From a virus, in IMG/VR virus record IMGVR_UViG_3300032805_000001, positions 56,104 through 120,103 of that record: a DNA stretch of 64,000 nucleotides. One strand, 5' to 3'. Position numbers and translations under genes: made by a program. Under the pieces are notes generated by a model that was given only the letters and a program-made list of their open reading frames with translations, was not told where the DNA came from and searched no databases. How positions within the stretch are numbered: position 1 is the stretch's first letter; the number at the start of each line of letters is the position of its first letter. Shown piece after piece: positions 5,293 to 61,795 of the stretch.

Positions 5293-6519
5293 TTACATCT
5301 CCTCGAGCTCTTTGAGTACCGGGACCAGGTGGTTGGCGAGCACAAGATCCGCGTCGTACGACTCAGCGAACGTCCGGGCCCGCTTCCGCCGCATCACCGC
5401 CGCCTCAGTGCCCTTCTCCTGGTAGGCCTCCTCGTACGCCGCGGCGATCTCACCGGCGTACGGGGCCTTCCACCAGGCGTTGTGCCCGGTGATGTGACCG
5501 AGCTGGCCGTTCCAGTACGGCTCACCGTCCACCAGCCACCCGGCCCCGCACAGTTCCGTCATCGCCGAATGATCAGTGACAACCGCCGGCGTGCCACCCG
5601 CGGCAGCCTCAACGATCGGCAACCCGAACCCTTCACCATGCGAAGCGTTCGACAGCAGGTCAAGGACCCCGTACCAGGCAGCGAGATTCACCGGCTTGAT
5701 CGCCCCGGTCACATACGTGTACCAGTCGCTGAACCGCACATGCTGATCCAGGTCCAGCGCCGACACGATGGCCTGCAAGTCCAGGGCACCCGGGGAGCGG
5801 GGGAGCGCGTGAATCAGCAGCAGCGCGTCATCATGCCGTTTACGGAACTCCGCGAACGCCCGCAACTGCGCCGGGTACGACTTGCGGATCGTGTCCTTGT
5901 TCGCCCCGTTGATCCCGATCAGGAATGCGTCCTCGGGCAAGCCGAGCTCGCGGCGGTTCTGCGCCGGGTCCGCGAGCGGCCGGTACACCTTCTGCGTCTC
6001 GATCCCGTGCGGGACATACAGCGGGGAGAACCCCGCCTTCCGCAGCTCCTGCTCGCCGTACCGGGACATCGCGATCGGCACTGCCCCGGACCGCTGCAAA
6101 GCCTGCCGGTCCATGATCCCCATCGGCTGGCAGTCGACCGGCATCCAGTTGGCCACCTTCAGGCCCTGCAACTGGCCCGGGTCGAGCACCCACTGATCCA
6201 TCAAGGTGATCACAAAGTCCGCGTTGGTGCGGAGAGCATGCTCGCGGAGGATGTCGTTGCCGTACGGGTCGACCGCGCCGGGCAGGACTGGGACACCGCC
6301 CCAGTCGATCGACATGCCCTGGATGCCGTAGTAGGCGGAAACGATCATCTCGTGGCCGAGAGCTTGCAGGCGGGGAATCCAGACCTGAGTCTGCTGCCCG
6401 TACCCAGTTATCGTGGGGCCGTTGGAGTGCCAGAGGATGCGGGCTACCGGAACCACCCCCGCGGGGTGGTCGTGATCGTCATGAGGTAAGGGTAACGGGA
6501 ACTGCCGCATGTAGCACAT
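5293..6519 (-). CDS. GT4 (GT-B fold) glycosyltransferase
   Basis: TGYGQQT, YVPHGIET, RKSYP, SHGEGFGLPIVEAAAGGTP. Confidence 0.9.
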   Translation of the reverse strand: MCYMRQFPLPLPHDDHDHPAGVVPVARILWHSNGPTITGYGQQTQVWIPRLQALGHEMIVSAYYGIQGMSIDWGGVPVLPGAVDPYGNDILREHALRTNADFVITLMDQWVLDPGQLQGLKVANWMPVDCQPMGIMDRQALQRSGAVPIAMSRYGEQELRKAGFSPLYVPHGIETQKVYRPLADPAQNRRELGLPEDAFLIGINGANKDTIRKSYPAQLRAFAEFRKRHDDALLLIHALPRSPGALDLQAIVSALDLDQHVRFSDWYTYVTGAIKPVNLAAWYGVLDLLSNASHGEGFGLPIVEAAAGGTPAVVTDHSAMTELCGAGWLVDGEPYWNGQLGHITGHNAWWKAPYAGEIAAAYEEAYQEKGTEAAVMRRKRARTFAESYDADLVLANHLVPVLKELEEM

Positions 6520-6615
6520 GGTGGATATGGGGTTCCTTGCATGCTTCTGGGCTACTCCCCCGCTCTGAAATTTTAGAGCGCGAGAAGACGGCTTCTCACG
6601 AATTGATCATGTATC

Positions 6616-7680
6616 ATGGGGGACATGACCATAACCCCGATCGAGCGGATCATCCTCCCGCCCGGCGACGGCCGGCCCGACTGGCTCCCCGTCGCCGTCA
6701 GCGGCACACCCGCCCCGCCACCCGGCATCGACCCGCACGCCGCCTACATCGCCCGGCTCAAGAGCCCGCAATCCAAGCGCGTCATGAACGGCTGCCTGAA
6801 CAACCTCGCCCGCATGATCGCCAGCGACGCCCTCGGCGCCGAACCCGAACTTGACGACAACCCCGGCAAGGCCTTCCCGTGGTGGCTGCTCCGCTACCAG
6901 CACACCTCCCGCCTCACAGCCCTCCTCGACAGCCACCAGCCGCCCTACGCAGCGTCCTACATCAACAAGCACCTCGCGGCGCTGCGCGGCATCCTTGAGG
7001 AATGCTGGAAACTTGAGCTGATGAGCGGCGACGACTACACCCGCGCCAGGCGCATCGAGGACGTCAAGTTTCACCGCGAGCCCGCCGGCCGGCTCATCCA
7101 CGACGACGACATGGCCAGGCTGCTCGCCGTCTGCTCGGACGGCATCATCGGAATCCGGGACACCGCGCTGCTCGCCACGCTGTACTGCACCGGTATCCGC
7201 TGCGAAGAAGCCGCCACCGCGCTCATCGAGCACTACGACGGCCGCGAGCGGACCCTGCGTGTCCTCGGCAAGGGAAACAAGGAACGCACTGTCCCCATCC
7301 ACCCGGCCGGGATCCCCCACCTTGAAACGTGGCTCGCCCTGCTCGGCGACCAGCGCGGGCCGCTGTTCCGCACCGTCGACAAGCACAACCGGATCGGCGG
7401 CGCGGTCAGCCCTGGTGCCATCCAGCGGCGGATCAGCCAGCGTTACCAGCAGGCCGGCATACGCAGGCTCACGGCACACGACTTCCGCCGGACGTTCCTC
7501 AGCGAGTTCCTCGATTCTGGTGCCGACGCGATGCAGGCACGAAAGGTCGCCGGGCACGCGAGCGTCGCCACGACCCAGCTTTACGACCTTCGCGAGGACC
7601 GCGGCATCCGCGAAGCCGTGAGCCGGATGAAGATCGCCCTCCCTGCCCCGCCGTCAGTGGATGCCGTCTCTCCTTCCTGA
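6616..7680 (+). CDS. Tyrosine recombinase
   Basis: Complete catalytic set: TGIR, GKGNK, HDFRR, AGHAS, LYD. Confidence 0.92.
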   Translation: MGDMTITPIERIILPPGDGRPDWLPVAVSGTPAPPPGIDPHAAYIARLKSPQSKRVMNGCLNNLARMIASDALGAEPELDDNPGKAFPWWLLRYQHTSRLTALLDSHQPPYAASYINKHLAALRGILEECWKLELMSGDDYTRARRIEDVKFHREPAGRLIHDDDMARLLAVCSDGIIGIRDTALLATLYCTGIRCEEAATALIEHYDGRERTLRVLGKGNKERTVPIHPAGIPHLETWLALLGDQRGPLFRTVDKHNRIGGAVSPGAIQRRISQRYQQAGIRRLTAHDFRRTFLSEFLDSGADAMQARKVAGHASVATTQLYDLREDRGIREAVSRMKIALPAPPSVDAVSPS

Positions 7681-7691
7681 CCTCTCCCCCC

Positions 7692-7725
7692 GAAAGCCCC
7701 CCGGCCTCCTCCGGGGGGCTTTCCT
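7692..7725 (+). terminator. GC-rich hairpin terminator
   Basis: gaaagccccccgg / ccggggggctttc inverted repeat directly after the recombinase stop. Confidence 0.7.
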
Positions 7726-7741
7726 TATACCTGGAGGCAGC

Positions 7742-8707
7742 GTGACCGTTCCCGCCCGTGTCCCCGGTTTGCGTGGCCGTCTCCCGGTCAAGCCGCCGGG
7801 TGAAAGGTTTGCTCTCCGGTTTGTCCACGAGTACGTCGTCGAGCCGCTTCCGGCACCGTCGTACCCGGTCGACGTGACCGGCGGGATCGGCGACCAGGAC
7901 TGGTTCATGCTAGGCAATGGCCCTGACCCAACCTGTACTACTCATCCCAACGGGGTGGGTGACTGCGGGTTCGCCGGCCGGCAGCACCTTCGCATGGCGA
8001 AGGCCGCGAACTACGGGCAGATGGAAACGTGGGAGACCAGCGACGAACTCGTCGCTGAGTACCTTGCGTACGACGGCGGCCAGGATGCCGGCGTGAACCT
8101 CGCTGACGTGCTTCTGGCGTGGTACAAGGCGGGGAGGATTTTCGGGTTCGCCCCGGTCGATCACACTGATCCGGCTGCGGTCGATTCGGCTATGGAGGCG
8201 TTCAATGGTGCCTACGCCGGTGTGAATCTGACCGATGATGCCAATGACTTGTTCAGCCAGGGTCAGCCGTGGACTGTCGCTGATGGTGAGCAGCCCGATC
8301 CTGACCAGGGTCATTGCATTGTGAAGGTGAAGGCGGACGGGCGGAGTGTCGACGGGTATGTGACGTGGGGGGCGCTGCAGCCGGCGATGGTGGATTGGAG
8401 TGCGGCTTGCCTGGAGGAAGTGTGGGCGGTGATTACTACTGAGGATGAGGCGGCGAAGGTTGACATGGCTGCGCTGGTGGCTGATATCGAGGCCTTGGGC
8501 GGTACGGTTCCCACGCCTGCGCCGGTTCCTCCCGCCCCATCTCCTCCAGCGCCGCCCGCCCCGCCGGTGCCGCCCGCACCGGTGCCACCCGCACCGCAGC
8601 CCGCGAACCTGCTCGAGGAACTCGCCGCCCGGATCCGCATGGTGGCCGCCTCCGCGCAGCAGGACATCACCGAACTGCTCGCGTTCCTCGCCTCACATGG
8701 CTTGTAA
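7742..8707 (+). CDS. Putative papain-like cysteine peptidase with Pro-rich linker
   Basis: MLGN...GDC (Cys), GHCIV (His) and YVTWG; PPAP repeats near the C-terminus. Confidence 0.5.
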   Translation: MTVPARVPGLRGRLPVKPPGERFALRFVHEYVVEPLPAPSYPVDVTGGIGDQDWFMLGNGPDPTCTTHPNGVGDCGFAGRQHLRMAKAANYGQMETWETSDELVAEYLAYDGGQDAGVNLADVLLAWYKAGRIFGFAPVDHTDPAAVDSAMEAFNGAYAGVNLTDDANDLFSQGQPWTVADGEQPDPDQGHCIVKVKADGRSVDGYVTWGALQPAMVDWSAACLEEVWAVITTEDEAAKVDMAALVADIEALGGTVPTPAPVPPAPSPPAPPAPPVPPAPVPPAPQPANLLEELAARIRMVAASAQQDITELLAFLASHGL

Positions 8708-8994
8708 CCGCCTGCTTTTCGTGTAGCCTTTTCGCTGGGTTCTGATTCTGGCACCTCCAGCCGGCCCCGGCTGAGCAACGTGATCCGGCCCCACTGAGGC
8801 GATCACGGACCCGTCCTGGCAAGTCGTTCTGGCCCCGCCTGAGCGCCCCGATCGCAGCAACTTCTCCTGGCTCCACCGGGGCGAAACATAACGGGTAGTA
8901 CGCAAAACATACCAGTGGTTATCACGGGCAGTAGTGGACACGGAAGGGGCTGTAGTGAGACGCTTCATCGGTCGGTCGTGTCAGGAGGCCGCTG

Positions 8995-15019: not shown

Positions 15020-16510
15020 ATGTCCCGCGACGAGAACGGCCGGCGTGCCGCAGTGATTTACCTGCGGCAATCCCTTGACCGTCTCGGCACTGAAGACGCC
15101 GTGACACGGCAGCGGGAAGACGCCGTGGCCATCGCCGCCAGCCGCGGATTCCGGGTCATCGCGATCCACGCCGACAATGACACGTCCGCGAGAGGCCGCA
15201 GTAAGCGGCCCGGGTTCGACGCCACCCTCGCCGACGTCGAAGCCGGCAACGCCAGTGTGATCATCGCCTGGAACATGGACCGGCTCACCCGCAACTCCCG
15301 CGACCGGCTCCGTCTCATCGAAACAGGCCGCAAAGCCAAAGCGCTCGTTGTTCTCGCCCGCGGATCAGACATCGACTTGTCTACCCCGTCCGGGCGGATG
15401 ACCGCTGACATTCTCGCGTCCGTCGCGCAGGCCGAGATCGAAACGAAATCCGACCGGCAGAAACGCGCCAACTTGCAGGCCGTGCAACGGGGACGCCGGG
15501 TCGGCGGGCGGCGGCCGTTCGGGTTCGAGCAGGACGGCAAGACGCTGCGGCTAGACGAAGCTGACGCGATCAGGGACGGCTACCACGCTTATCTCGCCGG
15601 TTCCACCCTGGCCGCTATCGCCCGTGACTGGAACGCCCGCGGGTTCACCGCGCAGAAAGCACCGTGGGCCGGGTACAGCGTCGCCATGATCCTGAAAAAC
15701 CCCCGCTACATGGGCTGGCGGGGGTACGCGCCCGCGGATGAGAACCGTAAGGGCCGGCCTGTGATCGAGGCGGTCACCCAGGCGGAATGGCCCGCGATCG
15801 TCACCGAGAACATCTGGCATGGAGTCAACGGGATGCTGGCCAGCAAAGCCACGTCGGCTGTGAGCCGCGGCGGGCGTTACCTCCTGACCGGTGTCGCCTG
15901 GTGCGCGCTGTGTGACGTTGAGGGGCAGCCGTCGACGGTGCACGGCGGCGGGGCGGTCCGGCATTACCCGATGTACCGGTGCAGCCGCACCTACGGCCAT
16001 GTCAGCCGCAAAGCCGAGCCGATTGACCGGTGGGTGTCCGCGTACGCTGTCGCCCGCCTGTCCCGCAAAGACGCCCGTGAGCTGCTGACCAGTGCATCAT
16101 CGGAACCTGGTATCGGGGAACTGCGCGCCGAGTACAAGTCGCTGCTCGAGCGGAAACGGAAACTTGCGGAGGACCTGGCGCTGACGGACATGGACCCTGG
16201 TGACTACCGGGAGATGCGGGAGGCTTTCCGGCGGCGTCTCGGTGAGCTTGAGACCGCGATGGCCGGCAGCGGGCGGGCTTCGATTCTCAGGCCGCTCATC
16301 GACGCTGACAATGTTGAGGCGATGTGGGATGCGATGCCCAGAGCCCACCAGCGGCAGGTGATCGACAGTATTTTCACTGTCACCTTGTACCCGGCTGGGC
16401 AGGGAACGCGGACGTTCCGGCCGGAGACGGTGCGGGTTGAACCGAAGCGGGAGAAGCAGGCACTGAAAACACAGCCGGTACTCAACGAGAAACGGCGGAT
16501 AAGGCAGTGA
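15020..16510 (+). CDS. Large serine recombinase (integrase)
   Basis: YLRQS catalytic motif, RPGF, DRLTR, recombinase domain, C..C zinc ribbon, coiled coil; TAGACT -10 box 7 nt upstream (leaderless). Confidence 0.95.
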   Translation: MSRDENGRRAAVIYLRQSLDRLGTEDAVTRQREDAVAIAASRGFRVIAIHADNDTSARGRSKRPGFDATLADVEAGNASVIIAWNMDRLTRNSRDRLRLIETGRKAKALVVLARGSDIDLSTPSGRMTADILASVAQAEIETKSDRQKRANLQAVQRGRRVGGRRPFGFEQDGKTLRLDEADAIRDGYHAYLAGSTLAAIARDWNARGFTAQKAPWAGYSVAMILKNPRYMGWRGYAPADENRKGRPVIEAVTQAEWPAIVTENIWHGVNGMLASKATSAVSRGGRYLLTGVAWCALCDVEGQPSTVHGGGAVRHYPMYRCSRTYGHVSRKAEPIDRWVSAYAVARLSRKDARELLTSASSEPGIGELRAEYKSLLERKRKLAEDLALTDMDPGDYREMREAFRRRLGELETAMAGSGRASILRPLIDADNVEAMWDAMPRAHQRQVIDSIFTVTLYPAGQGTRTFRPETVRVEPKREKQALKTQPVLNEKRRIRQ

Positions 16511-17103
16511 CAGACGAAATCCTTGAGGAAGCGCGAACTCGGGTGCTAGCTGATATTGATGCTGCGCTTGCACGCGACTGGAACAACATCCGCCTGTGTT
16601 CCACGCTCGAACGTGAACGGAAGATCATTCTTCAATCCGACTGGCAGCCGAGCCGGCCACCACGCCGGATGCCGTCACTCTGGGCCATCGCCTCCTACTG
16701 GGACGAGCGCGACACTTTCGGTGACATCCCGCTCGATGCCGCCCCATTCTGCTTCGGATGCCGCAAGCACGCTGGATGGTGGGGACTTCCAGCATGCGAG
16801 GCCCGATGGAATGACGCCTCCTGCTTCCTGGACCGGGCGCATCTTATTACCCGGGACAAGGGTGGTCTTGATGGACCTCAGAACCTCGTCCCCCTCTGCG
16901 AGCGCTGCCATAAGACGATGCCGTTCTTTGGTGTCGGCGACGAGTGTGACGCAATCGAATGGGTGCGGGCTGGCGGCCGATTCGCGACGCCGGGTGTACT
17001 TGAGATGGAGGTCGCGGCGCTAGAAGCCAGATACGCTGCGGCGCGCGACGAGGCTAGGGCGGAAGCGGCCATGGCGCTCGGCGGCCAGTACTCACTCTGG
17101 TGA
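16507..17103 (+). CDS. HNH endonuclease
   Basis: CFGC...RAHLI...GG.D..NLVPLCERCH. Confidence 0.75.
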   Translation: MTDEILEEARTRVLADIDAALARDWNNIRLCSTLERERKIILQSDWQPSRPPRRMPSLWAIASYWDERDTFGDIPLDAAPFCFGCRKHAGWWGLPACEARWNDASCFLDRAHLITRDKGGLDGPQNLVPLCERCHKTMPFFGVGDECDAIEWVRAGGRFATPGVLEMEVAALEARYAAARDEARAEAAMALGGQYSLW

Positions 17104-35435: not shown

Positions 35436-36185
35436 CTAACTCTTCTCGCCCTCGCTGCGGACCACGTAGTCGTACCCGAGCACCTGATCTGGCGGCATGC
35501 ACCACTCCCCGTACAGGATGACGCCTTGCTGATCACTCCAGATGTGCGTGCCAGCCAGGATCGGGGAGCCGACGGGCAGCCTCAGCGCCCCCGCCTCCCG
35601 CGCGTCGGACGCCCGGCCCCGCACATAGTCCCTGCCGTGGGTGACGCGCCGCTTTGTCGCCCGCTCAATCATCGTGATCGCTCCCCCGGGGATCGGTGCC
35701 CGCTCAAGCAGGTCCGGCGCGACCATCCGGCTTGACTCGGGAATCCAGTCCACGGACAGCGCCCGCGGCCTGCCGCCGTGATGGGAGACCTCCTCGCGGC
35801 GGATGATCTGCGTTCCCGGTTCGATGCCGAGCACGTCCGCGACATAGGGGGGGGCGCTCACGATGTCCACTTCGGTAACGACGATCGTCTCCCCGTTACT
35901 GCCGGCACGGTGCATCGGCGACGTTGACACCCGGTCTTTCGGTGTCCGGCTGGTGCCGTGCGGGTCGGACACGAAACTGCCCTGCGGGGACGTGTAGATC
36001 AGGCCCTCGACCTGAAGGAGCCCGATCGCTTTCGCGGCCGTGGATGGGGCGACGCTCCACTGGCTGGCGATAGCGGAGATCGCGGGCAGCCGGTCACCGA
36101 CGCTGAGCCGACCGCCCACAATCTCGGATCGATAGAAGCCCGCGATCTGGGCATATGGCGGGGCGGGTCGTTCGGCTGGCGGCAT
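35436..36185 (-). CDS. GntR/HutC regulator (KorSA/TraR-like)
   Basis: PPYAQIA..I..G.L..GDRLP wHTH plus UTRA domain; divergent from the transfer operon. Confidence 0.9.
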   Translation of the reverse strand: MPPAERPAPPYAQIAGFYRSEIVGGRLSVGDRLPAISAIASQWSVAPSTAAKAIGLLQVEGLIYTSPQGSFVSDPHGTSRTPKDRVSTSPMHRAGSNGETIVVTEVDIVSAPPYVADVLGIEPGTQIIRREEVSHHGGRPRALSVDWIPESSRMVAPDLLERAPIPGGAITMIERATKRRVTHGRDYVRGRASDAREAGALRLPVGSPILAGTHIWSDQQGVILYGEWCMPPDQVLGYDYVVRSEGEKS

Positions 36186-36344
36186 CCGGGGATCTCCCTG
36201 TCGTGTGCTAGCGGACGGGTGTCCAACCCAACCGTCCGTCTTTCAGTAAGCGTATGCCAGTAGACGTTGACTCTCGCGTACTAGCGGACGTACTCTCAGC
36301 GGAGACGCTGGAATCCCCGGCGGTTCCACGGAAGGACGGCGAAC

Positions 36345-36656
36345 ATGACGGCTCCCGCCACTGGCACCCGGAAACCCCGGCCACGTCGCCGGATTCCCGG
36401 GCGTCCCGACGGGGACCGCCTAGTCCCGTTCTCTGCGGCATCCGAGCGCTTGGGCCGCTCCACGGACACGCTGCGCGAATGGCACGACGAAGGAAACCTT
36501 CCCGCCGTTGTGACACCGGGCAGCCAGTGGATGACGTTCGAGTCGTTCATTGCCTCGGTGCTCGCGTCGGCCCGCCCGGGTAAGCCGGGCGACATTGCCG
36601 CTCTTGCCCGCGCATGGTTCGCGGCGCACCCCGCCATGGAAGGAGTGGTTGCCTGA
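36345..36656 (+). CDS. HTH DNA-binding protein
   Basis: ASERLGRSTDTLREW..EG.LPA. Confidence 0.6.
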   Translation: MTAPATGTRKPRPRRRIPGRPDGDRLVPFSAASERLGRSTDTLREWHDEGNLPAVVTPGSQWMTFESFIASVLASARPGKPGDIAALARAWFAAHPAMEGVVA

Positions 36657-37302
36657 TGGCCCGCTCGGCGGCAAAAGAGAACGGCCCCAAGGCGCTGAGG
36701 ACACCTGGAGCCGTTGAACAGGATCGCCCCCCTGAAAGGACCCATCCTGATGGCCAGAAACGTAGCACGCACCCAGGTCGTCCATGTGGACGACACGCCG
36801 GCCGCCGGCTACGGCCGCCGTCTCGGCCGGCAAGCCGCCGCGATGGGCCCGGCCACCGACCGCCGTCCCGTGTCCAGGCCCATGGAACAGTCCTGGGTCC
36901 GCGCGCGGGAGATCGCCAAGACCCTCCACGGCAGCCTCACCCCGTCCGTGCGGCAGGCCTACGCCACATCAGGCGACCCGATGGACCAGATGATCACCGA
37001 GGCGCTCGGGGAACTGGACGAACAGCGCCACTTGGCGGCCGTCCGGTGAGCGCCCCGCCTTTCCTGGGCCAGCCCGGCTACGAAGACGACGACCCGCAGC
37101 CCGACCTGACCATGGTCATCCTGCACGAGGCCCTCGACCTGCTCGCGACCGCCGCGCTCGCCGCCGAGACAGACGAGGCGGCCCGGGTGCACGGGCTGCT
37201 CGGCGAGGTCGAGACGGTCGCGTTCGGGTTCGCCGCGGACTCCGCCGAAGCGAACGGGCTAAACCTTCTCACCGGCGCGATCCGGCGCAGGGCGGAAGCG
37301 GC

Positions 37303-38288
37303 GTGAACTCGATCATCCCTCCCGCCATAGCCCCTTTCATGAACTGGCTGGGGACGCAGATCGCCGCGATGCGAACCGTCATCGGTGCCCTGATCACAGG
37401 CGCTTCGATGCCGGCCCGGCAGACGCTGCTCTACACGTTCGTCCTGATTGTCATCCTGTACTTCCTCGTCAGGATCTTTACCCGCAAGAAGAAGCCAAAG
37501 AAGACGTAACCCCCCAACCCCAGTACCGCACGGTGCCGGGCCCATCACCGAAGGAAACAGCCCATGAACTCCGCCCATGTTCTCGCCGCGACTTCCCCGT
37601 CCGTTCACATGCCGCAGCCGATGGCCGCCGCCATCGCGATCACGTTCCTCGTCCTCTTCGTCTTCCTCGTCCTCAGGGGGCTCGCCAGCTTCGGCAAGTC
37701 CAGCCGGTAAGCAAGCCGCCGTCCAAGCGGGCCACCGTCATCGAAGGAGAAATCACCCATGAGCTTCGCTCACATCATCACCGACCCGGCCGTCCATCAG
37801 GCGGCCAGTAACACCTGGGACGCCTACGACACCAAGACCGCCGGGCAGGCCGGCATCTTCGCCGGATGCGTCGCCGGTTTCCTGCTCCTGGTCAAGATCG
37901 TCAGGGCCGCTGGCCGTAAGCCCGCCACCAGCAACTAGGCCGGGGGTCCGGCAAGGCGCCCATTCCACGCCGGGCCCCCGCAAGATCCACTTCAGCCAAA
38001 AGGGAGCAGATCGTGTCTGCATTCAACCACCCGGCCACGAGGAAAACCCTCGCCGCCCTGGGTGGTACCGCCGCAGTCGTCGCCGTCTGCCTGATCGCCG
38101 GTGCTGTTTCCCGGCTCGCCGGCGGCGGGACAGGTGTAGCGGTCATCGTGGCCACGTTCGCGGGCTGCTGGATCGTCTTCAGCCCCCGGCCCCGCCGGCA
38201 TCCCGCAACACCGCGGCGTCGCAGCCGGGGCCGCGACCCCCAGATCACCGTGACCGAAAGCCAGGAACCGGCGCAACTCGCCGCATGA
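37303..38288 (+). other. Run of four small membrane-protein ORFs (spd-like): 37303-37509, ~37565-37710, ~37759-37938, 38013-38288
   Basis: Each has an RBS, one or two hydrophobic helices and a basic tail. Confidence 0.55.
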
Positions 38289-39205
38289 CCACGGAATCCG
38301 CTAAAACGATCTTCAAAGGGACCACGATGCCCGGCATGACAAAGCACCGCACCACCGAACGGCACGCCAGCAAGACGCGCCGCGACCACCTGTGGGTACT
38401 AGCCGTCATCGCCGCCTTCGCCCTGTACGACGTATGGGGAGGCTGGACACATATCGGCAATGAGTCCGGTTTCCCGCACGGCACCGGATGGACCCTCACA
38501 GTAATCGTGGAAGTCTACTGGGGCTACGCCCTTTACGCATGGCTCGCCGCCGCCCCCGGCCCCCGCTCCCGCAAATTCGCCATGTGGTCCGCAGGGGGAG
38601 TATTTATCCTCAGCCTCGCCGGCCAGGCCGCCGCGCATTTGGCCGCACACAAAATGCCCCCAGTCGGGGTAGTGGTATTCGTCAGCGCACTCCCGGTTAT
38701 TGTGCTCGCGCTCATCGCCATTCTCGTTCACCTGCGTCACATCGACCGGGCAGAGATGGCTGAGGGGGAAACAGAATCGGCCGGGCAGGCGGAACTCGCT
38801 GCGGTACGGGCCGAGCTGAGCGAGGCGCGGGAAGCGGCCAAGGTCATGCAAGCCGGCTTGGATGCGGCCCGCGCCGAGACCGCCGAGGCGGTAGCGAAGG
38901 CGGAAGTACTCGCGCGGAAGCCGGCCGGTACCGCAAAACCCAAGGGGGCTCAGCGCGGTACCCGGAAGCAGGGCCGGGGGAGCGGTACCGCCGCCGCTAA
39001 CGCGGAGCGCACGTTCGATGAGTTGCTAGCCGACGCCCGCGCCTACCGCGCCGAGCTCGCCACAGCAGGCAAGGGGGAGAGGCCGACGAAGGAGCGGCTG
39101 CGGCTCCGCTTCGGAGTAAGCAGCGGCACGGCTCTCGCGGTCTGCCGGGCACTCAAGGATGACGAGCCCATCGAGGCTCCGGAAGCGCCCGGGGCGGTGG
39201 GCTGA
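38285..39205 (+). CDS. SpdB2/DUF2637-like spread protein
   Basis: Four TM helices, coiled coil, C-terminal HTH-like segment (PTKERLRLRFGVSSGTA). Confidence 0.65.
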   Translation: MTTESAKTIFKGTTMPGMTKHRTTERHASKTRRDHLWVLAVIAAFALYDVWGGWTHIGNESGFPHGTGWTLTVIVEVYWGYALYAWLAAAPGPRSRKFAMWSAGGVFILSLAGQAAAHLAAHKMPPVGVVVFVSALPVIVLALIAILVHLRHIDRAEMAEGETESAGQAELAAVRAELSEAREAAKVMQAGLDAARAETAEAVAKAEVLARKPAGTAKPKGAQRGTRKQGRGSGTAAANAERTFDELLADARAYRAELATAGKGERPTKERLRLRFGVSSGTALAVCRALKDDEPIEAPEAPGAVG

Positions 39206-39785
39206 GATGACCCTCCCGTCCCGGTGTCCGGGCGGCGGTTCGCGGGGCCGCATGCCCGGCCTCCACGGGACCTCTCACAGGCACTGGAATCGGGGGGAAA
39301 TTCCTGAGATTTCTTCCGCCCCCCATGCGGTGGCCTGTCAGGCGACCCCACTCCCCCGGGAGATGACCCCCTTCTGGCGGCGGCCCCGGCCTTGGGTGTC
39401 ACCCGCCGGCCCGACGTGCGCGCGTGATTTTACTACTTCTGAAAGGTGGTCTCGCCATGCACGTTAACGTCACACCCGCTTCGCGGAAGCGCCAGTGGCA
39501 CATCGACAAGGTAAACAACGCCACCACTCCAGCGGATCAGATGGATTGCGCGATCTCCTGGGCGCGTGCCGAGCTGGCCCAGTGTGCGTCAGCAAGACCG
39601 GAGGACGCTCCCGGCCTGCGCCGCCAGCTCGCTCACATGATCGCGATGTTCGCAGCGGACATTCACCGCGTTCACCCCGCGCCCGAATTCAGGGATTCGC
39701 TCCCACCTCTGCCCGGTGGCGGGTGGGCACCTAAGCCTCGCAGTGACGCCCGGCACCCCTGAGAAGACTGGAGACGAAGACGGCC

Positions 39786-40322
39786 ATGGCCAACGACCAC
39801 GCCACCCCAGTACCGCCCCGCGCGCTGTTCGTGCTGCGCGGTGGTGCCGGTACTGACGATGCGGTACCGGAGGCCAGTCCTGCGACACTACCGGCCCCGG
39901 TAGAGGCCGGCGCCGGGGACGGTACCGAGATGCAGCCGGTACCGGTCTCGGTCCCGATGACGGTACCGGAGCGTGCCAGTCTCGCCGCCCGGCACTGGGC
40001 CACCGTCGCCGCGGACGGTGCCGGGCGGCTATGGCTGAACCCCGGCCGGATCCTTTACGTCCTGTGGCACGGCCAGCCTGAATCACTCGCCGGTCATCGC
40101 GTTTACGTGAAATCCCGGGCATGGGTGCCACCAGACCTGGACGGCAAAGCAGCGTCGTTTATCACGGGCGCGGGAATCGTTTACCACCTGCTGATCGCCC
40201 GCCCCCTGAAAACGGTCTGCCTGATCGTGAGCGGGGCAGCGGAAAGACCGCTGCGTCTCGCCGGGCTCATCGCATTGCTGCTCGTCCTCATCTTCGCCGT
40301 CCTGCCGCACGTTCCATTCTGA
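39786..40322 (+). CDS. Membrane protein of the transfer operon
   Basis: C-terminal hydrophobic helices; operon context. Confidence 0.55.
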   Translation: MANDHATPVPPRALFVLRGGAGTDDAVPEASPATLPAPVEAGAGDGTEMQPVPVSVPMTVPERASLAARHWATVAADGAGRLWLNPGRILYVLWHGQPESLAGHRVYVKSRAWVPPDLDGKAASFITGAGIVYHLLIARPLKTVCLIVSGAAERPLRLAGLIALLLVLIFAVLPHVPF

Positions 40323-40432
40323 AAGGAGACCACCATGTGGTGGGTAATTTTGTTCCTTATTCTCGCCGGGTTCGTGGTTATCGTCGCTGAACTCCTGACT
40401 CACATCCCGCAGATCGCCTGAAAGGACTCATC

Positions 40433-40891
40433 GTGAATTGGGCTTCGCTTCTTCTCGCCGCCGTGTTCGGCACCCCGGCGGTGGTGATGCTGATACGCCA
40501 CAAGGCGCCTCGTGTGACGGCGATCCTCGCCGCGCTCGCAGCGATATGCCTCATCGCAGGCATCCCGTCGTTCCTGGCCATGATCGGTCACCCGATCGGT
40601 TCCGGCCCGATCCTGCTCGGGATCGTCGTCGCCACCATCGCGTTCCTGATGTTCTTCTGGCTCGACGTGATCCGCGGCGAGCACAAGATTCCCCTGATCG
40701 GCCGGAAGGGCGCCGCTGGCGGCCAGCCGGGCAGCGGCGGGAAAGCAAACCATCACATCCGCCCGCTGGTGGCGAGCGTGGGTCTCGCCGTGTTCGGTTT
40801 GATGATCGCGATCAACTGGCATTCGGTTGTCACGGGCACGAGCACCGGCGTCTCTCAGACGTTCACGTCGATCACGCACGCGGGGGCCTGA
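40433..40891 (+). CDS. Multi-pass membrane protein (TraA-like position)
   Basis: Four hydrophobic segments immediately upstream of FtsK. Confidence 0.6.
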   Translation: MNWASLLLAAVFGTPAVVMLIRHKAPRVTAILAALAAICLIAGIPSFLAMIGHPIGSGPILLGIVVATIAFLMFFWLDVIRGEHKIPLIGRKGAAGGQPGSGGKANHHIRPLVASVGLAVFGLMIAINWHSVVTGTSTGVSQTFTSITHAGA

Positions 40892-40894
40892 CCG

Positions 40895-43000
40895 GTGGGC
40901 CGCGTCGTGAGGTCCTGGAGCGGAGACGGCCTGGTGCACGGCGAGGTCGTCTCCGATTCCGGCGTGCCCGATGACACGGCGCGGCCCGGACCTGAGCCGG
41001 GGGAAACGCCCCGCAAGCCGGGCGCGCTGCGCCTGATGTGGCGCCACCACGGCCCGGTCGTCCGGCCGTACCTGTGGCTGGCCGCGATCTGGCTGGACGC
41101 TGCCGCCGCGCACCGTGCGGCGCCGGCTGCCCGGCTGCTGCTCACCGCCGGCCCTGTAGCGGTCATGTACTTCCGCCTGCGCCGGAAACAACCCCGTAAG
41201 GGGGGGCGCCTGACGGAAGCGGATGAGATCGCCGCGCGGCATTCGCTGGTGTCGTGGACAGCCGGATCGGCGTGGCTGCTGACTGCGGGTATTCTCACCG
41301 GCCCGTCCGTGTGGGCGGTCACAGTACTGGTCGTCGCCGGTTCCGTGCTCGCCGGCGCGCACGCGCACGAAGCAGCGGCGGCCCGGCAGGCGCCGACCCC
41401 GCCACCCGCAGAAGAAGACGAAACCGACGCGACAATCCCTGTCCCGGTCCCGGAGCCGGCGGGGGAGGAACACGGCCTAGCCCGGCAGGCTGCCCTCGGC
41501 GAAGACGAGTACACCCCGCCCAGCCTCAGCCTCCTGCAGTCCGCCCCGCCAGCCGACAGCACCCAGGTCACCAAAACCACCAGCGACGTCGCGGCTGCCT
41601 TGTCCGCGGTGCTGGAACAGTTCGGTATCGACGCCCAGGTAGCCGGGTTCACCCGCGGCCCGCAGGTCACCCGGTACGCGATCGAGGTCGGCCCCGGTGT
41701 CAAAGTCGAACGGGTCACGGCGCTGACCAAGAACATCGCCTACGCGGTCAAAAGCGCCGACGTGCGGGTCCTGTCGCCGATCCCGGGCCAGTCCGCGATC
41801 GGCGTGGAAATCCCCAACACGGTCAAAGAAATCGTCGCCCTCGCCGACGTGCTGAAGTCCGCGGCGGCCCTCGCCGACCATCACCCGATGATCGCCGGGC
41901 TCGGCAAAGACGTCGAAGGCCGCGTGGTGATCGCGAACCTCGCGAAAGCCCCGCACATGCTCATCGCCGGGGCGACCGGATCAGGCAAATCAATCTGCGT
42001 GAACAGCCTCATCACGTCGATTCTGCTACGCGCCACCCCCGGCGAGGTGCGGATGATCCTGGTCGACCCGAAACGGGTCGAGCTGAGCATCTACGAAGGC
42101 ATCCCGCACCTGATCACCCCGATCATCACCAGCCCGAAGAAAGCCGCCGGGGCGCTGGAATGGGCTGTGGGGGAGATGGAACGCCGCTACGACGACCTGG
42201 CCGCTTCCGGGTTCCGCCACGTCGACGACTTTAACCGCGCGGTCCGCGCGGGAACCCTGACCGCGCCTCCCGGCAGCGACCGGGTGTACCGGCCGTACCC
42301 GTACCTGCTGATCATCGTCGACGAACTCGCGGACCTGATGATGGTCGCCCCCCGCGACGTCGAGGAGTCCGTCGTCCGCATCACCCAGCTTGCCCGCGCC
42401 GCCGGCATCCACCTCGTGCTGGCCACGCAGCGGCCGTCCGTGGACGTGGTGACGGGGCTGATCAAAGCGAACGTGCCGTCCCGGCTCGCGTTCGCCACCT
42501 CCAGCCTCACCGACTCCCGGGTCGTCCTCGACCAGCCCGGGGCGGAGAAGCTCATCGGCCAGGGCGACGCCTTGTTCCTGCCGATGGGGGCGAGCAAGCC
42601 GCTGCGGCTTCAGGGCGCGTTCGTGTCAGAGAAAGAGATCCGGGCGGTCGTCGCGCACTGCAAGAAGCAGGCCCGCCCCGCCTACCTGGACGGCGACCCG
42701 CTCGAGGTGACCGCCACCGCGACCGCCCGTGAGGCTGACGGCGACATCGGCGACGACCTGGACCTGCTCGTACAGGCCGTCGAGCAGGTCGTCACCACTC
42801 AGTTCGGGTCGACGTCGATGCTGCAGCGCAAGCTGCGCGTCGGGTTCGCCAAGGCAGGCCGGCTGATGGACCTGATGGAGGCCCGGGGCATCGTCGGCCC
42901 ATCCGAGGGTTCCAAGGCCCGCGACGTGCTGGTCAAGCCGGACGAGCTTGACGAGACCCTGGCCAGCCTGCGGCTGGCCAGCAACCCCGAGGAGAACTAG
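40895..43000 (+). CDS. ftsK: FtsK/SpoIIIE DNA translocase (TraB-like position)
   Basis: GATGSGKS Walker [12 protein letters not shown] Walker B, LATQRPS, gamma domain [21 protein letters not shown]; N-terminal TM helices. Confidence 0.95.
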
Positions 43001-52560: not shown

Positions 52561-53070
52561 CTATGACCATCCGGTGACCGTCACTCCCACAAGCCGGTCC
52601 AGAATCCCCGCACTGCCCACAACCGCCGGCGCCCCCCACGTGAGCGCCTGTGACTGTCCCGGCTGCACCGTAATTGACGCCGGCTCACTCACTTCGGTAA
52701 TCACAGATCCCGCCCGGTCATTGACGAACCGGACCGTCACCGAATGAAGAGTGACCGCAGCGCCACCCTCATTGCTCACGTCGACCGTGACCACCGGCGT
52801 GCCGTAGCTTGAGTACGCCCCGTCCGTGAACGACACCACAGCCGGGCCCGCAGGCGTCGCCCCCGCCGCCGCGTGATGCACCGCGAGAACCGCGGCCAGG
52901 GCGAGGACGGGCAGCAGCGCCACCCGTCCCCACCGCTTCGCCGGCCCGTTGCCGATGATGGCGAACAAGAAAACGAACCCCGCCGCCAATGCCAGCCAGA
53001 ACGGCACCCCCAGCATCACGGCACCGCCCACGGGGACTCCCAGGGCAATGCAGACCGCCCAAGTTCTCAT
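52561..53070 (-). CDS. Membrane protein with a beta-rich C-terminal domain
   Basis: Three hydrophobic helices followed by an Ig-like pattern. Confidence 0.55.
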   Translation of the reverse strand: MRTWAVCIALGVPVGGAVMLGVPFWLALAAGFVFLFAIIGNGPAKRWGRVALLPVLALAAVLAVHHAAAGATPAGPAVVSFTDGAYSSYGTPVVTVDVSNEGGAAVTLHSVTVRFVNDRAGSVITEVSEPASITVQPGQSQALTWGAPAVVGSAGILDRLVGVTVTGWS

Positions 53071-54260
53071 AACGCAACCCCCTCTTCATCGGCTGGCGCA
53101 GAAGCCAGCAGTCGTAGGTACTCGTGCTCAACTTTCCGCGAGTGTGCCACTCCGTAGGCGACCCTCCCGGGCCGCCATGAAGTCAGCAAAGAATCGTTCT
53201 TACTGCAGTTACAGGAGACGCAGGCCGGTACAAGGTTGAACTCAGCCTCAGCGCCGCCGCGCGTCAGCGGGCGAACGTGGTCGATCGTTGCGGCTTCCGC
53301 CCCGCAGTACACGCACGGCCCGGACGTGCGGATTGCCGCATACACCTCGGGCGGCACCGGTCCGGCCACCTCTGCGGCCTCTTTGCGGGCACGCCGACTG
53401 TTGCCGTACGAGCGGGCCCGCGCTTCCCACTCGCCGGGTGGTAGTGCGGAACGCCAGCATGCTTGGCAGTAGCGGGCGAGTCCGCGGAATCTGCGTCCAC
53501 AGCCTGCACAGTCGCGCTCTATGGCCTCGCAGGCGTGGCAGCGGCGGCTAGTTCCTTTGAAGACTTGCCCGCAGAACATGCACTCACGCTCGGTCGCCTG
53601 GCAGGCGTGGCAGCGGCGAGTGTGGTTCTTGAAGGGTTTTCCGCACTCAACGCAGGTTCGTTCAATCTTCCGGCAGGCGGGACACGGTTCCTGGTGCCCG
53701 CTGTACCGCTTGCCGCACTGAGGGCAATCACGCTCAACAGTCCGGCAGACGTGACAGCGCCGGTTCGTTCCCCTGAACTGGGCGCCGCACTCGATGCATG
53801 CACGCTCGCGCTGTAGGCAGGCAGAGCAGGTGTTCTGGTTTCCCTGGAAGCTCTGCCCGCATTCCTGGCAGGTTCTAGGAGTTGCCCGGCAGAGGTAGCA
53901 AATGCTGACGTCGCCCCGGAATTGCCTGCCGCACTGGTCGCATGCTCGCATTCCGTACGCTGGCCGACATGACCGGCAGCGAGTAAGGCGGCCCTTGATC
54001 GGCCGGCCACACTCGGCGCACTGCCGTTCGGGGACAGGCTTGCATGTCTTGCAGAGCCGTTCGTCCCCCTTGTATGCCGCCCCGCACTGAGTGCAGGTGC
54101 GCTCCGCCTGACGGCACATCTTGCAGCTGCGTCCGTTGCCCTTGAATGTGCGCCCGCACTTGATGCAGGAGCGCTCGGTCGCGGAGCAGGCACCACATCG
54201 CCGCTTGTCCCCCTTGAAGGTCTTCCCGCACTGTGCACACTCGCGCTGGCCGTAAGACAT
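53067..54260 (-). CDS. HNH endonuclease with 11 tandem C4 zinc-ribbon repeats
   Basis: 11 x RxCxxCGxx(F/Y)xGxxxxCxxC, then CVYCG..TIDHVRPL.RGG...NLVPACVSCNCSK. Confidence 0.9.
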   Translation of the reverse strand: MSYGQRECAQCGKTFKGDKRRCGACSATERSCIKCGRTFKGNGRSCKMCRQAERTCTQCGAAYKGDERLCKTCKPVPERQCAECGRPIKGRLTRCRSCRPAYGMRACDQCGRQFRGDVSICYLCRATPRTCQECGQSFQGNQNTCSACLQRERACIECGAQFRGTNRRCHVCRTVERDCPQCGKRYSGHQEPCPACRKIERTCVECGKPFKNHTRRCHACQATERECMFCGQVFKGTSRRCHACEAIERDCAGCGRRFRGLARYCQACWRSALPPGEWEARARSYGNSRRARKEAAEVAGPVPPEVYAAIRTSGPCVYCGAEAATIDHVRPLTRGGAEAEFNLVPACVSCNCSKNDSLLTSWRPGRVAYGVAHSRKVEHEYLRLLASAPADEEGVAL

Positions 54261-54308
54261 GGGACCAGTGTAGTCCCATACCGGTCCATGTCTCATACTG
54301 GTCCCATG
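54258..54308. promoter_or_regulatory. Divergent control region with a perfect 12-bp inverted repeat containing both start codons
   Basis: CATGGGACCAGT (54258-54269) / ACTGGTCCCATG (54297-54308). Confidence 0.7.
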
Positions 54309-54482
54309 AAGCATGTGAATCTGCGCCTGGATGACGAACTGCACGCCCGCCTCAGGGCAGCGGCGGAAGCCGACCGGCGCTCCCTCAACACGATGATTGC
54401 GGTACTCATCGAAGAGGGATTGCAGCGGCGCACCGCGCCGGCTCCCGCAACTCCCGGACCTCACTCCTCCTCGCCCGTATAG
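54306..54482 (+). CDS. Arc-family ribbon-helix-helix regulator
   Basis: VNLRLDDELHARLRAAAEADRRSLNTMI..LIEE. Confidence 0.85.
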   Translation: MKHVNLRLDDELHARLRAAAEADRRSLNTMIAVLIEEGLQRRTAPAPATPGPHSSSPV

Positions 54483-59332: not shown

Positions 59333-60130
59333 TTACCCGTTCTCCGCGCGAGCGCGGGTCTGTGCCAGCCTGAACGACTGGGTGCCGGTCTCGATGATGT
59401 GCGCGTTATACGTCAGCCGGTCCACGATCGCCGCGCACAACCTGGGGTCGGTGAAGGTGCGTTTCCACTCGGAGAACGGGGCGTTGGACGCGACCGCCAT
59501 CGCCCGGCGTTCCTCCCTGTCGGTGAAGATCTGGAATAGCAGCTTCGCGCCGGTCTTGTCTAGCTCGAGATAGCCGAACTCGTCCAGGCAGAGCAGGTCA
59601 CACCGGCCGTAACGGGCGATGACCTTCGTTAGCTGCCGTTCATCCTGAGCTTCGGCGAGCTCGTTGACGAGATTGGCGGCAGTGGTATAGCGGACCTTCA
59701 GCCCGGCCTCGGCGATGGCCGTCCCGATCCCGATGAGCAGGTGAGATTTCCCGGTGCCGGAGTCGCCGACCAGGCAGAGCGGCTGGCCCGCCACCACCCA
59801 TGCGGGGTGGCAGAGGGTGGCGATCTGCTCGGGTGAGATCTCCGGGTTGGCGGTGTAGTCGAAGTCCTCGATCCGCTTCGGCCGCGGGAACGCCGCCTCG
59901 CGGACCAGGCGTATCTTGCGGCGCTCGTCCCGGTGCTGCATCTCCTCGGTGAGCAGGGCGGCCAGGAAGTCTTTATAGGTTGCCCGCTCCTTGAGCGCCT
60001 GCTTGACGGCTTCTTCGTATCCCTCGCGGATAGCGGGCAGATGCAGGGCACGGGCGGCCTGCTCGATCACCATGTCGGCCGGGTCGTCGTCCACCACGGG
60101 CGGCCGGGCGTCCCTCGTCGCCGCGGTCAT
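59333..60130 (-). CDS. istB: IS21 helper ATPase IstB
   Basis: L.LP, A.FP..K.IEDFDY, GDSGTGKSH, LCLDEFGY, SN.PFSEW, AIVDRL, SFRL. Confidence 0.95.
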   Translation of the reverse strand: MTAATRDARPPVVDDDPADMVIEQAARALHLPAIREGYEEAVKQALKERATYKDFLAALLTEEMQHRDERRKIRLVREAAFPRPKRIEDFDYTANPEISPEQIATLCHPAWVVAGQPLCLVGDSGTGKSHLLIGIGTAIAEAGLKVRYTTAANLVNELAEAQDERQLTKVIARYGRCDLLCLDEFGYLELDKTGAKLLFQIFTDREERRAMAVASNAPFSEWKRTFTDPRLCAAIVDRLTYNAHIIETGTQSFRLAQTRARAENG

Positions 60131-60765
60131 GGCGCACCTCGCCGGGTGCGGCGGGACAGCAGTTCGTCATAGGCTGCTACCGATGGGAGGGGCCTGGTGT
60201 CCTCGGGTATCGGCGTCCGGCGTTCCGCCAGCGTGATCACGTCAGCCTGTCCTGTCTCTGTCGCTGCTGTCTTGACGGGTGCCACCTCGGGCGCGTCCTG
60301 GCTAGCCTTGCGCGCTTCGATGGCCACGAGCTCGGGGCTCGCCGCCCCGGCTTCCAGCGCCACCATGATTCCCGCGATCACCTGCGCGGCGGCCATGCGG
60401 CGATGCAGCAGCAGCACCTCGATAAGCGCCCTGGTCCCGGCCGCGTCGCCGTGCGCTTTGCGAGCCGCCGCCCAGAACGCGTCATGCGCAGTGGTGAACG
60501 TTCCTGCCTCGCGGGCCTGGGCGAGCCCCGTGGATCCGGCCAGCGCGCCGGGCCGGACCATCAGGATCTCCAGGTAGTGATCCAGCGTGTCCCGGTAGTC
60601 GTACCGGCGGGTCAGCCGTGCGTACTGGGCGATGACCTCGTTGCGGTCGAACACCAGCAGCTCGTTGGCCCGCAGGCTGACCCGGACCTGCCGGCCGATG
60701 AACCGTGCCGGGACCGAGTAGTAGCACTGGCGGATGACGATCCGCGAGTCACGGCGGACGGTCAC
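60127..60765 (-). pseudogene. istA: IS21 transposase IstA, C-terminal fragment (no DDE core)
   Basis: YSVPARFIGRQVRV.L, LDHYLE.L..RPGAL.GST.L.QAR, GTRALIEVLLLHRR, PLPSVAAYDELL. Confidence 0.85.
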
Positions 60766-61795
60766 CCCACGTACAGCCCCCCCAATGCGGCCCAGACGGC
60801 GCCGTAACGCGCCCCGCAACACCAGCACCAGCCAGCGCCGCACCAGCCAGCACACTCACAGCAGCAACCCTCGCGAACCTCCGCATAGCAAGACTCCTCA
60901 CCCGGCACGCGCAACCCCTCCTGGTTGCACGCACAGGGCGAGAAGGGGACCAAAGGCCCCCTCGCTCACAACGGCAACGGCAACGGCTCAACCGGCCGCG
61001 TACGCGCCCACAAGCGAACCTCAGCCAATTCCGCAGCGTCGCACAGCACATCCACCATCGCGCCCGGATGCAGCGTCTCAAGGCCGTAGAGCGCGTCCTC
61101 AACACCGCTATACGGCGTCGGAGCCACGAAGTGACCTTCGCTGCCGAACGTCTCACACCACACCAGCACGTCACCAGGCAACGTGAACAAGTAAAACTGC
61201 TCAGGCATCATGAACTCCCTCACTCACAGCCCGCATCCCTCCTGATGTGAGCCTTGAGCAAGGCACGAGCAACCCCCCTACCCTGACGAGATAGGGACAT
61301 TGTTCGCACACTTGCATAACCGCAGGTCAGAGGCCATATCACTGAGTGCTGGGCAGAGCCAAGACCGGTTCCCCTCACGAGGTAACCCCAACTCAGGCAG
61401 ACAAGCCTGCTGCTATGTACGTGTCAAGAATCGAGCGGTCAAGCGTTCGCCGGCTACAGCTAGCGCTTGCCTAGGGTCTGATCTGAGCTACCTGCCGGGC
61501 GTTGTCCCTGCCCGTCGTGCTCATGACAGTGACTCTACCCTCGCACAGATCACGTGTCAACCCAGAGAATGAAGATTCTCACGAGTCAGGGTCACAGGGT
61601 ACCTGTACTAAGCAAGGAGCGGGCAGGCCGGGAAACCTCGGCTGGCCTGCCAGGATGGCGCGGACGGCGCCCGGGCCGGCCCGGCTCGGCTCGCGCGCGA
61701 GCTCATATCATCGAAGCGGGAGATCGCGGAAATTCCCACGACTACCTGAGCGATTTTCGTGCAGTATTTTCGCCCGGTTTCTAGGGGCCGATTCT

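Follow-up and report, generated by a model that had tools for sequence, protein, structure and literature searches.

A phage HNH endonuclease preceded by an array of eleven tandem Cys4 units, and the family to which it belongs

A gene encoding an HNH endonuclease fused to a long array of tandem four-cysteine (Cys4) zinc-ribbon-like units was analysed in the right-hand 64 kb (64,000 nucleotides, hereafter the window) of the 120,103-base IMG/VR record IMGVR_UViG_3300032805_000001, which is phage-like and has an estimated completeness of 97%. The gene is present as 1 copy in the record (record positions 109173-110363) and its product of 397 amino acids has 11 such units, a basic linker and an intact HNH domain (Table 1). 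It belongs to a family with a variable number of units and a sporadic distribution, which, judging from the sequences collected, is rare and carried by soil actinomycetes and their mobile elements. The explanation which we favour, and which we hold with middling confidence, is that the protein is a free-standing, mobile HNH DNA endonuclease aimed by a polydactyl 11-unit zinc array that binds nucleic acid.

A preliminary description of this DNA had reported 11 tandem zinc repeats of about 24 amino acids, and this was borne out by the translation and by a scan for CxxC motifs, which found 22 within the array, pairing into 11 units (of 24, 24, 25, 26, 24, 24, 24, 24, 24, 24 and 24 amino acids in order), and 2 more in the HNH domain; every one of the 11 four-residue strings that it had listed from the repeats (DKRR to LARY) was also correct. 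The array has a net charge of +33 (isoelectric point 9.3) and scored above the curated cut-offs of the Pfam families DZR (PF12773; E 1.3e-11, 44.9 bits, cut-off 27.3) and DZR_2 (PF18912; 29.0 bits, cut-off 27), a Pfam scan of a six-unit segment giving five DZR stretches. The C-terminus matched Pfam HNH (PF01844; residues 316-356, E 6.2e-08, 33.1 bits, cut-off 21.4) and HNH_5 (PF14279; 28.0 bits, cut-off 27.5), and the HNH core aligned with the solved Gme HNH nickase 4h9d (E 2.6e-06) with the D-H, two Asn and both CxxC matched, so that the fusion of a basic linker and an intact HNH domain to the array holds as described. Residues H328, N342, C347, C350, N351 and K354 showed no variation among 66 sequences, and the fold of the HNH domain matched those of type II-C Cas9 HNH domains (VIA-align Z 8.1, 8.0 and 7.4) and EcoKMcrA (Z 6.3). 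The linker has helices at residues 277-293 and 304-311 in the model and conserved residues R289, R290, G300, P301 and Y307, and tblastn alignments to phage HNH genes begin at about residues 269-289. The minus-strand open reading frame (ORF) ending at 53067 can be opened at a GTG at 54464, giving 465 amino acids, or at an ATG at 54260, giving 397; the ATG is the likely start, because the 68-residue upstream extension would be antisense to a Pfam-supported ribbon-helix-helix (RHH) ORF and because homologues begin a few residues ahead of the first Cys.

A word-indexed protein search returned 69 proteins at E <= 0.001 from 3760 candidates, 66 of which were at E <= 8.9e-47 (221-501 amino acids), and the names of those proteins in their sources were only 'HNH endonuclease', 'McrA' or 'hypothetical protein'. 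When representatives clustered at 50% identity were searched exhaustively, 58 proteins scored E <= 1e-30, 284 E <= 1e-10 and 14,739 E <= 0.001, this last set being mostly plain HNH domains. Of 194 HNH-core sequences collected, 121 had at least one canonical unit (15, 6, 8, 11, 11, 22, 23, 16, 5, 1, 1, 1 and 1 proteins having 1 to 13 units respectively), with a mode of 6-8 units. The comparison of repeat number among homologues which the preliminary description had proposed thus revealed no invariance, as they carry from 1 to 13 canonical units. The three longest arrays are those of a Rhodococcus plasmid copy (13), of the closest orthologue, from metagenomic locus L087 (12), and of the window protein (11). 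Every intact (unframeshifted) member that was inspected ends in an HNH domain. Several members (P0135, P0136, P0192 and P0081) retain the array but go out of frame either ahead of the HNH part or inside it, and these may be frameshifted assemblies or decaying copies.

Members of the family are sporadically distributed. A tblastn search of 50,697 phage records matched 64 of them with none reaching 80% query coverage, the best being Gordonia phage GAL1 (residues 150-363, 30% identity), and among the best 80 of 517 relatives in viral contigs none aligned before query residue 177, the pattern scan of viral contigs being one that may have missed array-bearing phages. A single homologue was found in 72,556 plasmids, a protein of 456 amino acids and 48.5% identity from Rhodococcus sp. 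USK10; its gene, with 13 units (plasmid NZ_CP076046.1, locus L001, 7770-9140), is absent from the PLSDB gene table. The genome collection gave 5 loci (four Streptomyces and one short Plantactinospora), an array-only search placing the array in 4 of 401 Streptomyces-genus genomes, and metagenomes gave 32 loci. In Streptomyces stoeckheimensis the linear chromosome has copies near both ends, 0.6-1.5 kb in and within the terminal inverted repeat (loci L005 and L006), and a further copy lies at the very end of another contig (L129), the family gene being telomere-adjacent on several replicon ends in this species.

The closest locus, L087, encodes a nuclease 68% identical to that of the window, and in both loci the nuclease gene follows a DUF3631 gene (27% identity between the two DUF3631 proteins, E 1e-06); L087 also shares with the window a gene for 156 amino acids farther upstream. 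When 23 window neighbours were searched by tblastn against the 6 genome and plasmid loci no shared gene was found, and against the 32 metagenome loci there was one shared flank gene, that of L087, and otherwise scattered weak matches. Clustering of 236 ORFs around 39 loci left the nuclease alone (23 ORFs) spanning many loci, with all other clusters confined to 3 loci or fewer, and a Pfam scan of 10 neighbours found 8 without a family. The idea of a conserved partner gene was rejected on both the neighbour search and the clustering of flanking ORFs. This combination of a sporadic distribution with no conserved gene partner is as in free-standing homing endonucleases.

Within the 24-residue unit just 8 positions are fixed (R1, C3, C6, G7, F10, G12, C17 and C20) and the other 16 vary, which is less than the largely conserved scaffold that had been described. 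Basic residues predominate at positions 8, 11, 15, 16 and 21 and acidic ones at position 24, with Arg at position 1 in 90% of family repeats and at position 15 in 7 of the 11 repeats of the window protein and 41% of family repeats. The four residues before the second CxxC (positions 13-16) had been singled out as a hypervariable patch, and this was rejected on three grounds. Across 531 family repeats the entropy at positions 13, 14, 15 and 16 was 3.59, 3.76, 2.97 and 3.33 bits, compared to 3.27-3.85 bits at positions 2, 4, 5, 9, 18, 19, 22 and 23. The 11 units of the window protein align 1:1 with units of the L087 orthologue, with 103 of 264 unit residues changed, and the substitutions fell at 20 of 44 residues at positions 13-16, 76 of 132 at other non-scaffold positions and 7 of 88 at fixed positions (Fisher p = 0.17 for the patch compared to the other variable positions). 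Finally, a set of 545 repeats gave 448 different strings for positions 13-16, compared to 485 and 489 for two other sets of four positions. Positions 13-16 therefore vary no more than other non-scaffold positions, and the code-like reading that had been suggested with reference to C2H2 arrays and TALEs (transcription activator-like effectors) finds no small recurring set of strings, as in TALEs, to match it; as far as the sequences tell, the patch is variable but not specially so, and the units do not fall into a few types. What did stand was its richness in polar and basic residues (72-74% polar compared to 42-66% at most other variable positions, and also more basic). Counted within each protein there were 539 distinct patch strings in 545 units, so that almost all units of a protein differ, and the repeats of the window protein have a mean pairwise identity of 43% at the protein level.

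Selection was assessed by the Nei-Gojobori method (NG86) on a single orthologue pair, the window protein and that of L087. The ratio of non-synonymous (dN) to synonymous (dS) divergence, omega, was 0.26 for the array, 0.09 for the linker and HNH domain together and 0.04 for the fixed positions, the patch having 0.51 and the remaining variable sites 0.37, and dN was 0.305 for the array compared to 0.106 for the nuclease domain, meaning that the array diverged about three times faster. The gene is hence under purifying selection with respect to its closest relative; positive or diversifying selection was not supported, omega being below 1 throughout this one pair, in a test which is weak because dS is about 1.2 and near saturation. 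At the DNA level the repeats of the window gene share a mean of 52% and a maximum of 64% nucleotide identity, and Tandem Repeats Finder (TRF) reported no tandem repeat in the gene, which together rule out recent tandem duplication within it. In the Rhodococcus copy units 10-12 are the most alike (72-74% nucleotide identity), which is a sign of a more recent unit duplication there.

The full-length AlphaFold2 (AF2) model had a mean predicted local distance difference test score (pLDDT) of 86.5, above 90 in units 5-11, and a predicted template modelling score (pTM) of 0.56, and residues 105-272 modelled alone gave a pLDDT of 95.3 and a pTM of 0.61. In these models the unit is a two-stranded hairpin bearing the first CxxC, a loop (positions 13-16) and a 4-residue helix starting at the second CxxC, an order of elements which, set against the familiar C2H2 consensus, is that of a classical zinc finger, much shortened. 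A VIA-align search with the full-length model was informative for the HNH part alone, and the array was searched separately against 48,161 Protein Data Bank (PDB) representatives. Just 11 chains reached Z >= 2, and all were DNA-bound C2H2 arrays, including CTCF, PRDM9, ZFP568, several ZBTB proteins, HIC2 and TFIIIA (Z 2.1-2.7; root mean square deviation (rmsd) 3.9-4.2 Å over 71-96 residues); four units lay on four fingers with an rmsd of 3.9-4.1 Å over 96 residues. A Foldseek search of the array against the PDB gave no match at E <= 0.001, its top rows still being DNA-bound C2H2 arrays, and BFVD gave multi-zinc viral proteins, several of them HNH fusions, at template modelling (TM) scores of 0.21 or less. 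The ESM Atlas, searched with residues 1-275, gave viral DZR clusters at scores of 0.86 or less, which are leads only. These modelled resemblances are too weak to demonstrate DNA binding by the array.

The closest known enzymes are N.phiGamma, N.BceSVIII and Bth193, zinc-ribbon HNH nicking endonucleases of phages and prophages which, according to Xu and Gupta 2013 (PMC3592412), are site- and strand-specific for sites of 3-7 bp and are encoded beside cos and terminase genes. Their extra zinc sites number one or two, or four in the case of Bth193, and such nickases are known tools. This agrees with the statement of the preliminary description that phage HNH homing endonucleases usually carry only one or a few accessory DNA-binding modules, and 11 is far outside the range studied. 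Like them the window protein is a phage-borne HNH enzyme with its own [CxxC]2 site and extra N-terminal CxxC zinc modules, but it differs in having 11 regular 24-residue units and in being encoded away from the terminase, without the cos and terminase adjacency typical of these nickases. By its sequence the array-HNH enzyme appears to be a variation on the known zinc-ribbon HNH nickases, the novel part being a far larger number of modules. A literature search found no description of tandem zinc-ribbon arrays, Xu and Gupta 2013 (PMC3592412) being the sole close precedent. In that work Zif268 was fused to the HNH domain of N.phiGamma, producing a nickase with a site of 12-13 bp, and the logic of an array plus a nuclease is the same in the window protein (PMC3592412).

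Other systems share single features with the protein. Among HNH endonucleases of the GAL1 gp80 and PHROG 1271 kind (PHROG 1271 matching at E 1.5e-15 over residues 175-367), GAL1 gp80 also has CxxC modules before the same linker and HNH domain, but these are three modules of about 40-45 amino acids, ending in C-x(2,3)-C and then a helix, and they depart from the unit of 24 amino acids. The units score as Pfam DZR, which is a ribbon pair of unknown function, but DZR lacks the long regular array and HNH fusion, and in the AF2 model the second CxxC of the unit starts a one-turn helix and not a second hairpin. With the polydactyl C2H2 arrays of CTCF, ZFP568, PRDM9 and ZBTB proteins (compared by the C2H2 consensus and TGEKP linker) the array shares tandem hairpin-helix zinc modules, a short conserved linker between units and the difference of every unit within a protein from the others. 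Unlike them its units are Cys4 and not Cys2His2, have a period of 24 and not about 28 amino acids and a helix of 4 and not about 12 residues, and have no classical recognition helix and no sequence relation to C2H2 fingers (Z <= 2.7, TM 0.14-0.37). TALEs differ in having near-identical repeats with few variable positions and a small set of types, the repeats here being 43% identical with 16 of 24 positions variable. Free-standing phage homing endonucleases, with accessory modules such as helix-turn-helix, AP2 and NUMOD, are similar in being stand-alone, sporadic genes with unconserved neighbours, as seen here in phage, plasmid and chromosomal islands, but dissimilar in that the accessory domain here is a long zinc array and not one or a few modules.

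In the explanation that we favour, each unit of 24 amino acids would bind one zinc through its two CxxC knuckles and so fold into the beta hairpin and one-turn helix of the models. The fixed basic residues (positions 1, 8, 11, 15/16 and 21) would hold the phosphate backbone, and sequence preference would come from variable polar residues across the unit, those at positions 13-16 among them. The array would in this way confine an HNH domain of a frequent-cutting nickase type to rare, long sites, a restriction which would make the gene tolerable to its carrier, and as a selfish or accessory cassette it may move, in soil actinomycetes, among phages, plasmids, integrative elements and the ends of chromosomes. 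In the phage of the window the gene sits after a RepAM-type gene and beside a divergent RHH gene which may repress it. In favour of this explanation are the architecture with its intact catalytic motif, the HNH domain at the end of all intact members inspected, the range of array lengths, the charge of the array with its basic residues at fixed positions, its confident fold and the DNA-bound C2H2 arrays as its sole structural matches, its faster divergence under purifying selection, the sporadic distribution with unshared neighbours, the distance from the terminase and the precedent of the zinc-ribbon HNH nickases and the Zif268 fusion.

Several observations weigh against this explanation. N.phiGamma deleted for its zinc ribbon has weakened activity and relaxed specificity, neither being abolished (PMC3592412), so that an HNH domain can carry specificity itself. 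Contact of the array with DNA is a prediction from its architecture, charge and fold, and the likeness to C2H2 arrays found by VIA-align and Foldseek is weak (best Z 2.7, none at E <= 0.001). The omega of the variable positions is below 1. A search for an empty allele found none, the RepAM gene having no match in viral contigs and one weak match in phages, and neither a target site, nor a homing event, nor a site polymorphic for presence and absence of the gene was seen. The position after the RepAM gene in the two closest loci could also indicate a role in replication and not selfish mobility.

The array may instead bind DNA without reading its sequence, as an electrostatic clamp, a ruler or a sliding anchor, the HNH domain and the linker between them providing a short specificity. 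On this view the protein is a nuclease which nicks or degrades frequently, for example in the breakdown of host or competitor DNA. We consider this somewhat unlikely. In its favour, the most conserved non-structural residues are the basic ones at fixed positions (1, 8, 11, 15, 16 and 21), variation is spread over all the other positions with no preferred patch for reading, the omega of 0.37-0.51 at variable sites is compatible with relaxed constraint, and the HNH core of N.phiGamma retains specificity of its own without the zinc-ribbon domain (PMC3592412). Against these stand the difference between nearly all units within a protein (539 of 545) and the 1:1 pairing of units at 68% identity, a pattern expected of units with roles tied to their position more than of clamps that could replace one another. 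An enzyme that cuts often and has no cognate protection gene would, moreover, poison its carrier, and no methylase is adjacent to the gene and no match to a protection gene was found among the neighbouring ORFs scanned.

The neighbourhood of the gene bears on its possible partners (Table 1). DUF3631, the family of the upstream gene, is that of the RepAM replication initiator of pMEA300-type actinomycete integrative elements (PMC3218068). The downstream ORF of 169 amino acids has no counterpart in L087. The divergent RHH ORF matched Pfam RHH_5 (2.9e-06), HicB (3.4e-06) and Arc (1.6e-04) and also PHROG Arc-like repressor families, and its product is possibly a regulator (repressor) of the nuclease gene. 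The arms of the perfect inverted repeat contain the ATG of the nuclease gene and the ATG (Met7) of the RHH ORF, which are 45 nucleotides apart, and the repeat may have a control function. The RHH gene and nuclease were considered as a conserved cassette and this was rejected for the closest orthologous locus, L087, which is without an RHH gene, so that the pairing is not conserved there.

Table 1. Coordinates of the nuclease gene, its parts and its neighbouring features in the window
Feature	Positions	Strand	Remarks
Whole nuclease gene	53067..54260	(-)	397 amino acids; zinc-module array, basic linker and HNH
Array, 11 tandem Cys4 units, residues 6-272	53445..54245	(-)	C-x2-C-x10-C-x2-C, period 24-26 amino acids, 44 Cys
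Basic helical linker, residues 273-313	53322..53444	(-)	Conserved throughout the family and also in plain phage HNH proteins
HNH (His-Me finger) domain, residues 314-390	53091..53321	(-)	Own CxxC...CxxC zinc site; D-H / N / N catalytic motif
ORF of 169 amino acids	52561..53070	(-)	Downstream; start overlaps nuclease stop by 4 nucleotides; hydrophobic N-terminal half; no family
Perfect 12-nucleotide inverted repeat	54258..54308	.	Arms 54258-54269 and 54297-54308, 27 nucleotides apart
RHH (Arc/CopG-like) ORF	54306..54482	(+)	Divergent; opens at 54288, likely start 54306
DUF3631 (RepAM-type replication initiator), 565 amino acids	54461..56158	(-)	Upstream gene; Pfam DUF3631 3.8e-16

Farther away, the window also encodes integrases, glycosyltransferases, a GntR regulator, an FtsK-type translocase and a large serine recombinase (15020-16510), and it has a remnant of IS21. 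The serine recombinase gene is immediately followed by an unrelated second HNH ORF (16507-17103, 198 amino acids, Pfam HNH 4e-05). The GntR regulator lies at 35436-43000 with the FtsK-type translocase, which has alpha and gamma domains, and with its GntR regulator, FtsK-type translocase and RepAM the phage carries modules typical of an actinomycete integrative-conjugative element. A truncated insertion sequence at 59333-60855, about 5 kb from the nuclease gene, has an IS21 istB gene (IstB_IS21, E 3.3e-62) after the C-terminal part of a transposase (Mu-transpos_C_2). The left half of the record encodes a terminase large-subunit (TerL) piece, another endonuclease, a transposase, a portal-MuF fusion and tail-type proteins. 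At the record start (L119, record numbering) the TerL piece occupies 96-1286 (PHROG 2, E 7.9e-28, covering only profile positions 356-592 of 807) and is followed by an HNH-like endonuclease ORF at 1315-1980, the transposase at 2887-4053 and the portal-MuF fusion at 5295-8981; the terminase piece was detected by PHROGs, Pfam finding none in the first ORFs. It seems that either mobile genes have entered the packaging region or the two record ends each hold part of the terminase.

These neighbours invite the idea of an accessory nuclease in the life cycle of the element, nicking an origin together with RepAM or serving as an HNH cofactor of terminase, with the array reading a single cis site. We regard this as unlikely. 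In its favour, packaging-associated HNH genes usually lie near phage record ends, and the nearest phage relatives of the HNH domain, which are annotated as HNH endonuclease genes, are within about 1.3 kb of a record end (the right in GAL1, the left in Gordonia phage Patio). The nuclease gene directly follows the DUF3631/RepAM gene both in the window and in L087, DUF3631 is a family of pMEA300 replication initiators (PMC3218068) and many phage HNH genes are beside cos and terminase genes (PMC3592412). The other loci, on the other hand, have no adjacent RepAM or terminase, their neighbours changing from locus to locus, and the RepAM proteins of the two loci are only 27% identical compared to 68% for the nucleases, so the RepAM-nuclease pair does not co-evolve as a unit. 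Even with the ends of the record joined, the terminase piece is also about 11 kb away from the nuclease gene, and it has a different endonuclease beside it; a terminase-associated role is for this reason not favoured.

In its strongest form, reading by the array would make the protein a natural prokaryotic or phage counterpart of the engineered zinc-finger nucleases, with portable units forming a programmable scaffold wired to a nickase, and we think this decidedly unlikely. Each unit would contact a few base pairs, so that arrays of 6-14 units would read a target of about 20-40 bp, and point changes, together with units being gained or lost, would drive the evolution of specificity. Such a code-like reading is a long shot, with the architecture as its sole positive evidence.

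That the array binds a ligand other than duplex DNA (single-stranded nucleic acid, a protein partner, or some structure or modification of DNA), with the HNH domain acting in that setting, is very unlikely. Its spacing, C-x2-C-x10-C-x2-C, does equal that of RanBP2-type Cys4 fingers, which read single-stranded RNA triplets in a modular way and have a conserved Trp and Asn, and no solved structure fits the array well, but unit position 1 is Arg compared to the Trp of RanBP2 fingers, six units scanned with Pfam at E <= 10 gave only DZR, DZR_2 and a faint zf-LYAR and no RanBP2 family, there is no conserved partner gene and the array is fused to a nuclease domain of the type that acts on DNA in Cas9, McrA and the phage nickases. 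Zinc ribbons as a class have many binding roles (PMC3592412).

Returning to the endonuclease that its zinc array may aim, the pair formed by the window protein and its L087 orthologue, with 1:1 units and 103 of 264 residues changed, is a natural experiment which could link changes of residue to changes of target. If the array reads DNA, no smaller tandem module that reads DNA than its unit of 24 amino acids would be known, and the protein would be the first bacterial or phage polydactyl zinc array coupled to a nuclease; it would then bear on how mobile nucleases gain long specificity and possibly on engineering. Were the programmable reading true, the module would be a very compact one at 24 amino acids each, with units that could be reused to rebuild specificity. 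If binding is non-specific, the family would still be a widespread, unannotated accessory nuclease of actinomycete mobile elements.

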